From NCBI GenBank assembly GCA_030264375.1, contig JASCQW010000032.1, forward strand, positions 31,738,617-31,802,616: a DNA stretch of 64,000 nt. Reading direction: 5' to 3'. A program made the translations under genes and the position numbers. Position 1 is the first letter of the stretch; every line of letters begins with the position of its first letter. The notes beneath the pieces are model-generated. The model was not told where the DNA came from. It saw nothing but the letters and a program-made list of their open reading frames with translations, and made no database searches. Shown here piece after piece: positions 8,761 through 39,990 of this stretch. Origin of the DNA: Carcharhinus longimanus (lineage: Eukaryota).

Positions 8761-9349
8761 TGCACTGTGCCACCCACACAAGTAGCTAATTGTGACATTT
8801 TCTTCCAATGACCCCTAGCATAGATTAATGCTTTCCAGTTCATGATTCTGCAACCACGAATCATTGCCAATTTTCTGTTAAACTTTCCACGCTTTACAAC
8901 CAAAGACAGAAAATGACCCCATGGCTTGAGAGTTGGAAAAAATTTATAGGATTGAACCTGCAGCAGCTGAAACAATAGAGCAGAGTTTAGCGAGCATTAG
9001 TTTAAACTTTGAAGGAGTGAGAACATCTGCACAAGTTCAAATACAAGTCAAACACTTAAAAAAACAGAAGAGCAATTGAGGTCAACCATCTACGTTGGAA
9101 ATCTCCAACCCCATAACGAGAGCTATTCAATTCCGTAATACCATGTTACTGGGTCAACAGTTCATAAAGTATGAATGTCATGAAAGATGATTGAAAACTG
9201 CAGCCTAAGAATGGCTTGGAAGGTTAAAGGAGCATTCTGTTTTAACTTGCTGGTCCTGCTAAATAGATACGTGCATGCAATTTTTGCAGTCCACTTGAAA
9301 GTTATCTCGTGCTACCTCAGCAGGTTGTCATTCTCAAAATGTTTCCTTT

Positions 9350-9697
9350 TACTCATTCATGGGACATGGGCATCACTGGCTAGTCAGCATTTATTGCCCA
9401 TTCCTGGTAGCCCTTAGAGGGCAGTTGAAACTCGACCACATTGGATCTGGAGTCACACGTGGGCCAGACCAGGTAAGGGCAGTAGATTTCCTTTCTTAAA
9501 AGACATAAGTGAACCAGATGAGTTTCTCCAACATTGGTTTATGGTCATCAATGGATTCTTAACTCCAGGTTATTTTTTGTTACTGAATTCAAATTTCACC
9601 ATCTGCGGTGGCAGGATTAAACCCGGGTCCCCAGAGCATTAGGTGAGTTTCTAGATTAATAGTCTAACAATAATACCACTGGGCCATCACCTCCCCA
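9350..9697 (-). mobile_element. tRNA-derived SINE family B
   Basis: Reverse complement of the family B sequence including head and GGGCAATAAATGCTG tail. Confidence 0.85.
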
Positions 9698-36045: not shown

Positions 36046-38807
36046 TTATTACAGTTTCAAAAAAAATGCAGTTTGTAAAAATTTTTAAATGAAATGTGGT
36101 TGAATTTTATTAGAGATTTTGATGTTCATTAATACCACTGGATTGCAGGTTTGCACTCCATTTGACCAAACGATCCACATTATCAGACAAATCAGTGGTT
36201 CACACCATACAAAATAGACACAACAACTGCCCCTAATTGGAATGGGATATTGCTGGAAATTCCCAACGAAACAGTGTCTGATACTGTAATGTCAGAGATA
36301 CAGCAGATCTTTTAGTAATTGGCAAGAGAGATTCGTTTCACCTTTTAAATATATTCCCCAACATCTCGATGAACAATAATTTAATGCACTCTGAAATGTT
36401 TAGAAAAACGAGTTCAAGCATGCTGAGAGTCAGCTTTGAAATGTGCACACATCAAGCCTTGAGGTGTTTAGATTTTTTCAACAGCGAATGCCAAGGTTTC
36501 TTGGTGAAAATCAGTTTCTTATTCATAGTGAACGCCAACTCTTTTTCCACATTGCGATGAATATTCATTCCACTGAACACAATGGGGGTGATTCTCTCAG
36601 CCCCACTCTTGAAACAATCAGAGTTGCCACTCTGCACTAGGATGGCAAGCAGAGGGAGGGAAATGGCGATCAGGGCTGGCCATCCTAATGTGGGAGGGGG
36701 GGTGTCAGGTCTGTCGGGTGTTTGGAATTGTTGTGNNNNNNNNNNNNNNNNNNNNNNGGAGAACAGGACTGTCGGGGGGAGGGGGAGGAAAAGGGAGATT
36801 GAGCCTGACCAGATTGAAGGCAGGTGGTGGAGTGTCAGGGAGATCAGGGCTGGCCTGGGGAGGCTCGACATTTCAGCAATGGGGGTTGGGTTGCGGGGCA
36901 GGCCAGCAACCTGGAGGACGACAAAGGGGGGAGCCAGTGCGCATGTGCCGATCTCTGCTCCGACAGATTGGCACGTAAGCAGTGGCCTGCTCAGCGCTAT
37001 GCTGCTGGTCTCTTGGGTGGGAATAAACCCCACGCCCTGATTTTCAAATGGAATCCTGCTAGGGTACTCTGCGATGCACAATGTGTCAGAGATTTACTCT
37101 GGGGTTCAAGCTATAAAAACTAATTGGATTTACTCCCATTTTCCTGCAAATTGGGGGCTTAGAATTTTTTGGGAGAATCCCAGCCAATGAGTTCTGCTCA
37201 CACATTTATTTACACACATTTATTTATAACTATAGTCTCCAGCCACGGAAAATATTTGTAGCTTGTTGTAGCAAACATTTGCCATTAGTTGCATTGTTCC
37301 AGATTCACTACAGTCATTATGGCAGTTTAAGTTAGAAAACAAGGGCATTTGAGAATTAGTCAGCAATGGCTGGATCAGTGAACAAAACAACATGTAACAT
37401 TGATTACATTGTTCCAAGAAATTCTGGGAGTTAATACTAAGAAGCAACTTTTTGGGAGGGGCAGGTTACATCACATTAATAAAACGGTGTTAAAAGAGAA
37501 ATTGATGGATAAAGTCCAACAGTTTCCAGTGAAAAATAATTTTTTGGGTACTTATTTTAGGCATTAGAAATCTCAGACATTCTGGAAACAAACAGGAGAC
37601 AAGAGATGGAAGGGCAGAGATTGACACTGGGTTATGAAGGGACATAGGTGAGAGTGGAATGAGGAGACATGAGGGGTGAATGGAAGGGCACGGCTTGGCA
37701 TAGAGGGCAGTAGGGAAGGTGTATGGTACATAGAGAGGTACAGGGTTATGAGGAGACATGGAGAAAGTAGAGCGACATGGGGAAAATGGGGGGCAGGGGT
37801 TTGGGTGACTAGAGAGGCATGGGTATGACAGGACATGGGGGAGCATGAGGTGGCAATAATGAGGCATTGGGAGTGCTAGTGTAGTGAAGGATAAGGGTTT
37901 TTTTTTTATTTTGGCTGGGACAAAATTCTAAGGCGTCATGTCAGGCCTTTCAAACAGCTTACTCTGACACCCAGCAGGCCACCTGGACTTGCTTCTCTAA
38001 GTCTTCCCAGGTCACCTGGCTCGGTTCCAGCCCAAACCCACTGGCCGGTAGTGAAGATCCCATCTTCGGGGGCATTTTCTCCCAGGTTAGGTGAGCCGAG
38101 CCGGAAAATTTCCAATCTCCCCATACTTGAGAATGAAAACCCAGGCCAATGTGTCTCTCTGCCCTTCATCCTCCAGATCACAAGAGCCATACTCTCTCCA
38201 AATTCAGAGACATTTTACTTATGCCTGATTATATTTGTTGGAACCAATAAAATACTATTTCCTCACTGTAGCATTTTTAAGTGAAGAAAACATTCAGTAA
38301 ACTAAAAAAGTTGTCTTTTCCACATTTTCTATCAAGTCAAAAGACAGGCTTAGCTCTTCCTGTTTTGAGTTAATCAAATCGGGACACTTGAAACAATTTC
38401 GTTGTCTTGAATTTTCATGGCCAATTCAACTCTTTTCTATGAAATGATTAAGATACAAGCTACAATATAAAAACTAACTAATGCCTTTCTCGTGTATGAT
38501 GATGTAATAGTTATGGTTCTGAACTTTAGGCTTAGTGGTCACAAGTTTAAAAATCTTCTTTCTTCTTTAATTCCCTGCTTGAAGGCAGGTCTGTTACCAC
38601 ACTTAACTGCCATCTCCATCACGAGTAGACCAAACTGGCAATCAAACTATCGACATAAAAGATGTACAGCCAGCTGAACCAACTGACACACCCAGGAAAT
38701 CCAATTTGCTGTAGCAACATACACTTTTACATGCACATTGTAGCCTGGAGCTATGGAGATTGATAGTAGAGCTCCACTTTCTTTCCATCACTCAGAAGCT
38801 CACTCCC

Positions 38808-39118
38808 AGAATCATAGAAGCATTGAATCTACAATGCAGAAGGCAGCCATTCAGCCCATTGACAACAAACCTACATAGGCCCTATCCCTGTACCCCCACA
38901 TATTTATCGTCTTAATCCTCCTGACACTAAAAGGAAAACTTGGCATGGCCAATCAACCTAACATGCACACCTTTGAACTGCGGAAGAAAACTGGAGGAAA
39001 CCTATGCAGACATGAGGAGAATGTGCCAACTCCCCACAGACAGTGACCCGAGCCAGAATCGAACCTGGGTCCTTGATGTTGTGAGGCAGCTGTGCTAACC
39101 ACTGAGACTGTGCCGCCT
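38808..39118 (-). mobile_element. HE1-type V-SINE
   Basis: Head, body and CR1-type tail on minus strand. Confidence 0.9.
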
Positions 39119-39633
39119 CTACCATGTAATTTTGTTCCATGTTGGAAGGATTTACAAATTGATACTGAAAACTGTTTTGCCATACTATGAATGCACCTTC
39201 CTTGGCTATCAAATTCTGAATCGGGAGCTTGTGACTCAGAGATAGAAATGCTACCACTCTTCCACAATATTCCTGATTTGAAAACCTCCTTGGCAAATTT
39301 AAAATGAAATTCATCAATCTAATAATATGTGGACTAACATGTTACTGTGCCAGTGGTTGGGAGTGGTATTCTTTCTTCTTCCATACCTTTGGTAACTTTT
39401 AAAAATATATATTATGTATAGATTTTTCTTGTTAATTTGATAGCAATGCTCTTCCTCCTTCAGGTACTAGGCCTAGACTAGCCTGGAGCTCTCCTCACCA
39501 AGCCTAATCATGATCAGACAGGAGATGCAGCTAGCCCATTGCACTTGGGGTGTGCTGATGCCTGCTAGGGTAGAGTAAAGGATTAGGGTAGCCAATGAGG
39601 TAAAACTGAGGCTTTAGCTGATGCAATTTTCCA

Positions 39634-39809
39634 AAGCCTTCTCGGCCTATTGGCTAAGATGAAGCGTTAGTGCAAACCCGGGTGGGGGTGCAATGCCTCA
39701 TCTTGTCAGCTTGGATCTGGTTTGTCCCTCATTTGGGGACGATGATTTGGCTTAATTTTAATTGACTTTTTTGATTAGAAACTAAGTATCAAAAGATGCT
39801 TTAAAAAAA
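39634..39809 (+). ncRNA. U2 snRNA-derived sequence (variant snRNA, pseudogene or snRNA-headed retroposon)
   Basis: 39638-39666 matches vertebrate U2 nt 5-33 at 26/29; stems IIa and IIb recognisable at 39705-39740; Sm-like GACTTTTTTGA; 3' hairpin; short A tract. Confidence 0.75.
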
Positions 39810-39879
39810 CAATTTGATTGGTCAATGATTATGTTTGAAAAGGTACTGCATTGATTTGCCACTGCCTTCTGCAGTATGG

Positions 39880-39990
39880 CTGACCAGGAAACTCTCCTGA
39901 GAATCGATCTGTTTGGTCACATATTTAACACACCTTCCTTGGTCATCAAGGACTGGCGTGGGACTGGATCTCGGAACTTCTGACTCAGAC
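39880..39990 (-). mobile_element. Old tRNA-headed SINE fragment (related copy at 39140-39260)
   Basis: Shared GAGTCA..AAG head and CCAAGGAAGGTG motif in both copies. Confidence 0.55.

Follow-up and report, generated by a model that had tools for sequence, protein, structure and literature searches.

SINEU elements are SINEs defined by heads derived from U1 or U2 snRNA; they have been found only in crocodilians, with the question of how transcription proceeds in the absence of an internal promoter left unsettled (PMC4494074). The main text of that article mentions neither sharks nor hairpins nor secondary structure, and the accessible parts of four other publications add no further host of snRNA-headed SINEs (PMC4758252; PMC5786205; PMC5381603; PMC7245038). 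A literature search retrieved no description of an snRNA-derived SINE in sharks; most subscription papers, Repbase, Dfam and the supplements of genome papers lay outside its scope and, because of the last three, a shark family may be catalogued without having been described.

A family of this kind is present in the genome of the shark Carcharhinus longimanus, and one of its copies lies in the window, the stretch of 64,000 nt of DNA that was analysed. Globin exons of this genome fit the shark haemoglobins of PDB 1gcv/1gcw and 3mkb much more closely than other haemoglobins, in agreement with a shark host. An earlier note had seen a U2-like RNA at 39634–39809 of the window. This segment is the 3' half of a decayed repeat copy spanning 39506–39809, in which U2 forms the body and the head consists of U1 and a U4 kink-turn, both absent from the note. 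The family resembles SINEU-1, -2 and -3 (PMC4494074) in being short and non-coding, in its U1 and U2 heads, in the recurrent addition of heads at the 5' end and in its partial duplications, as well as in its A tail, internal T runs, target site duplications (TSDs) in part of the copies and tandem insertions. Subfamily D parallels SINEU-3, a modified U2 monomer, and subfamily A parallels SINEU-2, in which U1 is followed by U2. The family differs from SINEU in its host, a shark rather than a crocodilian, in its U4 segment, none having been described for SINEU, in the middle part of U2, which has received an insertion here and is deleted in SINEU, in the lack of a shared target repeat such as Mariner-N4, and in signs of compensatory RNA structure, a subject on which the SINEU main text is silent. 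Its copy number, as estimated from non-random regions, also exceeds the approximately 7,700 + 1,600 + 1,058 copies reported for SINEU.

Subfamily A is headed by U1 (nt 1–95), and B, C and D are headed by U2 from nt 1; the shark family thus falls within the SINEU class as defined, and its layout differs from those described for the crocodilian families. It probably originated independently of crocodilian SINEU, with a U4 module, and would represent a second radiation of snRNA-headed SINEs, probably larger and independent, whose five subfamilies differ in age. Such a shark radiation, with its U4 module and traceable changes in RNA structure, makes the question of SINEU transcription testable. 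In practice, shark genome annotations will contain too many snRNAs on account of these copies, and their insertions supply presence/absence markers for shark phylogeny. Tailless and poly(A) snRNA retropseudogenes and snRNA–LINE chimeras draw on identical starting material and likely on the same enzymes, but the retropseudogenes are one-off copies of a normal RNA, whereas the rearrangements of the shark family are fixed throughout subfamilies.

The repeat family and its subfamilies

The repeat is dispersed in the genome and is about 340 nt long. It consists, in order, of a rearranged U1 nt 1–95, U4 nt 23–78 and a remodelled U2 nt 5–107, followed by a hexamer resembling a poly(A) signal and by an A tail. 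The ends are sharp and the flanks are unrelated among copies. Genome searches with family queries yielded 2250, 1137, 2828, 2651, 1396, 4389 and 3077 candidates, of which 40 were scored per search. Five related subfamilies (A1, A2, B, C and D) were distinguished, with copies 86–95% identical to consensus sequences of 225–393 nt. A1, the window type, has a consensus of 339 nt and a mean identity of 85.7% (57 copies, 21 of them near full length), whereas A2 (393 nt, 87.5%; 23 of 26 copies, the three below 75% having been dropped) has a duplicated hairpin unit. Subfamily B (306 nt, 95.1%, 30 of 30 copies) has U2 nt 1–40 as its head, a decayed kink-turn and two hairpin units; C (300 nt, 90.7%, 24 copies) has U2 nt 1–37 as its head and has retained the kink-turn. 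D (about 228 nt, 29 copies) is a remodelled sequence collinear with full-length U2, and its sampled copies are younger (90.6%) than those of A (85.7%), although D is structurally ancestral. A U1 head (A) and a U2 head (B and C) are carried by the same body, and 5' addition is recurrent: U1 or U2 re-additions were found at the 5' end of three copies (L069, L018 and L152), those at L069 and L018 being of U1 type. Copies intermediate between subfamilies, in which an A-like body carries a U2 head, were observed at L140 (1181–1465) and L152 (1143–1443), and the number of subfamilies is therefore greater than five.

The subfamilies share a fixed deletion, a triplication and a duplicated unit, and are not the sum of independent retrocopies. 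In 429 kb of unselected neighbour sequence, in regions that are not random, 8–11 copies were counted, giving a genome-wide estimate from these non-random regions of 50,000–69,000 copies (95% range 22,000–123,000). Ordinary U1, U2 and U4 matches number in the tens, against tens of thousands of family copies. The insertion in the U2 part is not unique to the window. In the first genome search, the best 40 of 2250 candidates showed 77–87% identity. The earlier note had argued against a randomly decayed U2 pseudogene, and the alignments bear this out. A plain U2 pseudogene that received an insertion by chance would suit the score obtained with the Rfam U2 model (26.4 bits, under the 46-bit cut-off), but the insertion, the U1 head and the U4 piece are common to dozens of aligned copies, and this explanation, refuted by the family alignments, can practically be dismissed.

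snRNA origin of the parts

The U1, U2 and U4 genes of the same genome served as references (U2 gene: L031). The A consensus contains U1 nt 1–95 with an 11-nt deletion, U4 nt 17/23–47, with a kink-turn identical at 23 of 25 positions, and U2 nt 7–102 with the insertion, each match being equalled in 0 of 500 dinucleotide shuffles. The 3' part of D matches U2 nt 96–191 (0/2000 shuffles), and a profile built from 21 copies also matched genuine U1 and U2 genes. Rfam searches of 14 loci gave just sub-threshold U2 matches, with no U1 or U4; when short stretches served as queries, U1 and U4 came up at E values of 0.12–6.7, amid chance matches. Two other resemblances were rejected: that of the insert to the 3' end of U2 was no better than for shuffles, and the U-run after the kink-turn, considered as the U4 Sm site, did not rise above shuffles and aligns with U4 nt 53–78.

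Two distinct types of U1 gene are present in the genome (L043 versus L045–L047, L049 and L051), and the A head is nearer to the L045/L046 type (score 125 versus 91). No U4-headed LINE or SINE was found among 20 U4 matches, which are tailless retrocopies or U4 copies of full-length type; most of the partial U4 matches (L239–L258) are tailless, 3'-truncated retrocopies ending at nt 62–108. Contig C162 carries three U4 genes (L053, L055 and L056) in a stretch of about 10 kb, interspersed with C-subfamily copies; one of these copies is oriented opposite to a U4 gene and lies some 300 nt upstream of it.

The copy in the window

The copy at 39506–39809 lies on the plus strand, as do all of the features described below, and is 87% identical to the A1 consensus. 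It is 5'-truncated, its first base being consensus nt 22 (nt 1–21 are missing), and has a 19-nt internal deletion at 39563/39564. Homology to the repeat extends from 39506 to about 39810, with a sharp stop, and thus reaches about 130 nt further in the 5' direction than had been noted. The U1-derived head (39506–39565) corresponds to U1 nt 22–92 with the 11-nt deletion (0/1000 shuffles), with a weak Rfam U1 match at 39529–39558 (E = 0.27), and includes U1 stem-loop II, the loop of which, AUUGCAC (39538–39544), we take to be the U1A-binding loop. The sequence at 39564–39587 comprises a linker and the remnant of a fold-back arm that, according to consensus folds and the alignment, pairs with U1 nt 1–31 in the family. 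It is followed by a segment derived from U4 nt 23–78 (39588–39635; 0/1000 shuffles, weak Rfam U4 matches), which begins with the U4 5' stem-loop and kink-turn (U4 nt 23–47, 39588–39612), the consensus of which is identical to the genome's U4 at 23 of 25 positions.

The U2 part begins with stem-loop I and the first copy of the U2 nt 23–31 motif (39638–39666), placed by Rfam alignment at U2 nt 5–33. The agreement of 26/29 stated in the earlier note was reproduced against the genome's own U2 gene (L031), and the letters GUUAGUG followed by 28 nt ahead of UCUUGUCAG were confirmed. The similarity further downstream is likewise non-random (39701–39774 against U2 nt 44–107, 0/1000 shuffles). The family hairpin unit occupies 39669–39718; its outer stem is formed by the second repeat and what was the stem-IIa loop, and its inner stem joins the third repeat (39679–39690) to 39694–39705 in the register of the branch-point stem, with CAA as the loop. 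In the window copy, this unit is disrupted by private changes at 39671, 39672 and 39676. U2 stem IIb (39724–39740) is present in all five subfamily consensuses. Where U2 has its Sm site, the copy has a U-run (39764–39774) that does not form a canonical Sm site in the family. It precedes the 3' end (39779–39809), which has a decayed AATAAA/ATTAAA-type hexamer, a short tetraloop hairpin (39784–39801) and an A tail; U-run, hairpin and A tract are all present as first reported.

No TSD was found in the flanks of the window copy, and it has no PSE-like score (–3.7), as expected from the suggestion in the earlier note that it is dead; the copy itself is an inert fossil. Another abundant repeat lies in two pieces on either side of the element (39150–39225 and 39826–39990). 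A candidate extension to 39884, a Rfam match to U2 stem-loop IV at 39846–39884, was rejected, because it falls in the downstream piece of this different repeat. Just upstream (38800–39120) is an unrelated and very common repeat, found beside many of the loci and presumably similar to the shark HE1 SINE. A search for host genes in the 100 longest of the 145 open frames of at least 75 aa gave no Pfam match, and a tRNA search was also negative.

RNA structure of the family

The 24-nt insert in the U2 part is a tandem triplication of U2 nt 23–31. The third repeat pairs with U2 nt 37–48 in the register of U2's branchpoint-interacting stem-loop (BSL), given as G25–C45 and C28–G42 in the accessible part of PMC13019295, and the loop UAG is changed to CAA. 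Pairing of the second repeat with the former stem-IIa loop has a probability of 0.96–0.99 in the predicted folds of A1 and D. Compared with U2 snRNA (RF00004), the family has retained stem-loop I, stem IIb and the BSL register, and D also retains the 3' half, whereas the CAA loop, the 24-nt triplication, the re-paired IIa loop and the altered Sm site depart from U2, and stem-loops III and IV are missing in A, B and C.

The long hairpin proposed in the earlier note for 39656–39704 is predicted for the 176-nt window piece (z = –2.98), but its upper half is private to the window copy. Pairing was counted in 36 of 46 A1 and D copies, those of equal length. The upper helix (UGCA/UGCA and CCC/GGG) is not a family feature: 58.7% of its cells are paired, and two of its pairs hold in just 5/36 and 1/36 copies. 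The lower helix can be paired in the family (88% of cells) but is beaten by another fold in the consensus, its first-repeat arm pairing with a probability of 0.89 in the window copy, against 0.0 for the consensus sequences of A1 and D. Of the two U2 stems said to be kept, IIb is (88%) and IIa, which is private to the window copy, is not, its central pair being present in 8/36 copies.

The helices of the family fold are 88–90% paired over the 36 A1 and D copies, among which no covariation is significant. Double-sided changes do appear across 64 hairpin units of seven types, in which 7 of the 12 inner-stem pairs change on both sides, with 101 double-sided cells versus 42 ± 8 in shuffles (0/500), a control inflated by relatedness; slid controls for these units are 31–45% paired. 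A simulation at the consensus level indicated kept pairing for both B units (1 and 2) and for C unit 2 (p = 0.0005–0.03), and was not significant for A1 (0.12), A2 unit 2 (0.37) and C unit 1 (0.46). These comparisons support the view that the source RNAs were structured, with compensatory changes between subfamilies, as judged from aligned sequences. Fold-back arms, for their part, can arise by template switching without selection.

Predicted folds also suggest that splice-recognition sequences are occupied: U1 nt 3–11 are paired at 0.84 in A versus 0.40 in the U1 gene, and U2 nt 33–38 at 0.99 (B) and 0.81 (C) versus 0.20 in the U2 gene. The branch-recognition GUAGUA of the BSL loop is replaced in A and D and masked in the heads of B and C. 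A has an intact U1 loop II and an intact U4 kink-turn, and the kink-turn is lost in B; we assume that U1 loop II binds U1A, that the U4 kink-turn binds 15.5K and that an Sm site binds Sm proteins. A canonical Sm site at the U2 position occurs in none of the five consensuses, and the run described as Sm-like in the window, although it exists as a U-run, corresponds to a sequence without the A–U junction of the canonical site in the A and D consensus.

Retroposition and decay

All subfamilies end in A-rich tails, preceded in A and B by an AATAAA/ATTAAA-type hexamer that presumably acts as a poly(A) signal. TSDs were counted at a score of at least 10 (10–19 bp), with mismatched pairs as the null (0.9–3%). 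They were present in 7/30 copies of B (null 0.9%), 8/24 of C and 5/27 of D (null about 3%); no excess was found in subfamily A, that of the window copy (1/49 versus a null of 0.9%, 8 of 57 copies having been dropped as 3'-incomplete). Same-strand neighbours from the family were found within 100 nt at 13 of 138 loci, against 0.9 expected, a preference for sites beside family members. Head-to-tail or nested members were observed at L030 (1350–1865), L089, L140, L152, L162, L163, L120 and L146; at L030, an A copy splits a D copy near U2 nt 27–40, with an apparent duplication of about 14 nt.

The mosaic order, the five subfamilies, the A tails, the target duplications and the neutral decay of the copies are established, and the family is very probably a non-autonomous retroposon moved by an L1/Tx1-type enzyme. 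The window element is a decayed copy of the U1–U4–U2 repeat, whose copying from a small number of source genes was likely the work of an L1/Tx1-type reverse transcriptase. Elements with the zf-RVT domain of L1/Tx1 type gave 145 matches in the genome. None of the 20 zf-RVT regions fetched, mostly fragments, carries an snRNA head that would mark it as the partner LINE, and the zf-RVT 3' end has in common with A only a T-run plus AATAAAGTA, at most a lead. At L197, the A tail of an L1/Tx1-type element runs straight into the start of a C/B-type copy (9219–9483), a junction that hints at a shared target site.

In each of the five subfamilies, paired positions have accumulated mismatches at the same rate as unpaired ones (Fisher p = 0.72–0.96), and CpG sites decay 3.5–8 times faster; the copies decay neutrally and are dead. 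PSE-like scores reach the threshold of 6 in 5/134 copies versus 23/668 background sequences, under a calibration in which 8 of 11 true genes reach at least 5.5 (leave-one-out); the copies thus score at background level. No near-consensus source copy was found among 154 copies, taken from the 40 best candidates per search, the best being 96.7% identical to its consensus; searches with the best D and B copies gave nothing above 91% and 94%, respectively, among the best 40 candidates scored in each. No 5' flank or extension is shared among 135 near-full copies. B starts at U2 nt 1 in 13/30 copies, a count biased by queries that favour full-length copies, and runs of T4–T7 occur in every subfamily consensus.

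The source envisaged in the earlier note, a structured U2 paralog or an snRNA-headed retroposon family, is retained as a structured, snRNA-derived retroposon family, but neither as a functional U2 paralog nor, for the window copy, with U2 as the head; against a functional paralog stand the changes in the branch-recognition loop and Sm site and the similar decay of paired and unpaired sites. A very unlikely rival takes the copies for processed pseudogenes that derive from functional variant snRNA genes peculiar to sharks, acting in or on splicing (a U2 variant for D and a U1–U4–U2 hybrid for A). The collinearity of D with full-length U2, the intact U1 loop II and U4 kink-turn of A and the pairing maintained across subfamilies would be expected of such genes, and a gene could be absent from the assembly, as true snRNA genes are often on small contigs. 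However, the branch-recognition loop and Sm site are altered, subfamilies succeed one another with different heads and duplicated units, B having no kink-turn, there is neither a near-consensus copy among the 154 nor a PSE signal, and tens of thousands of copies stand against tens of ordinary U1, U2 and U4 matches.

Proposed origin of the family

Type D would have arisen when a U2 gene gained the tandem triplication of nt 23–31; with it, the branch-recognition loop may have disappeared and a stronger branch-point stem may have become fixed. A 3'-shortened form may have acquired a U4 fragment and a U1 head, giving A, and C and B would have originated later by duplication of the hairpin unit and replacement of the U1 head by a fresh head of U2 nt 1–37/40. 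The balance tips slightly towards source copies situated behind a real U1 or U2 promoter, yielding capped Pol II RNAs that begin at snRNA nt 1, are polyadenylated and are mobilised in trans via the A tail. A position behind such promoters is suggested because snRNA promoters sit upstream and do not travel with the copy, and Pol II transcription from an snRNA promoter because copies start at snRNA nt 1, contain internal T runs and share no 5' extension.

Keno (Tx1 clade) and Utopia have their target between U2 nt 38 and 39, according to the accessible part of PMC4640811. The B and C heads terminate near this site, at nt 40 and 37, an outcome to be expected from the insertion of an older copy into a U2 gene and the takeover of that gene's promoter. 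Keno and Utopia differ from the shark family in being autonomous LINEs, as described in that part; none was identified in the shark genome, and the junctions are inexact.

A possible, if somewhat doubtful, alternative is that the same SINE obtained its heads by template switching onto snRNAs and was transcribed from chance upstream Pol II promoters, as in Kojima's proposal for SINEU, the hairpins being by-products of duplication and fold-back. The U1-type 5' re-additions at L069 and L018 are consistent with this, as are the similar extensions of SINEU-2 (PMC4494074), the abundance of truncated U4 retrocopies and the head junctions at nt 37 and 40, off the exact Keno site. Nevertheless, no non-snRNA 5' extension is shared among the 135 near-full copies, and the double-sided changes between subfamilies require selection on the RNA.

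Hypothetically, selection on the source RNAs would likely have retained U1 loop II, the U4 kink-turn and the hairpins, and masked or mutated the splice-recognition sequences and the Sm site. A bolder form of this reading, tentative and in our judgement unlikely, makes the independent shark SINE lineage an snRNP mimic, with repeated recapture of promoters in snRNA genes, the U1A and 15.5K modules kept and splice recognition hidden or mutated. B and C would have landed at about the Keno site in U2 genes, and spliceosomal proteins would be used as Alu uses SRP proteins. If true, this would explain the transcription of promoter-less snRNA-headed SINEs, and the family would be the first three-snRNA retroposon.

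The locus in other organisms

The insertion in the window is common to organisms B, C and E, in which contigs bridge the flank and the element, and it is therefore old; its divergence, like that of the flanks, gives no sign of constraint. Among 22 listed runs, no RNA data set holding the sequence appeared, which speaks neither for nor against expression. Exaptation of the window copy, with its private long hairpin as the functional part, could appeal to this shared insertion and to the fold (z = –2.98). It is nonetheless extremely improbable, as the differences within the element are like those in the flanks and the hairpin depends on a small number of private substitutions within a repeat whose sequence is self-complementary in any case. 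In organism B, 3/142 positions differ inside the element versus 5/142, 7/260 and 5/381 beside it; in organism E, 8/131 positions differ, with 12 gaps, versus 20/389 and 17/378 beside it. The family as a whole is present in organisms B, C, E and F.
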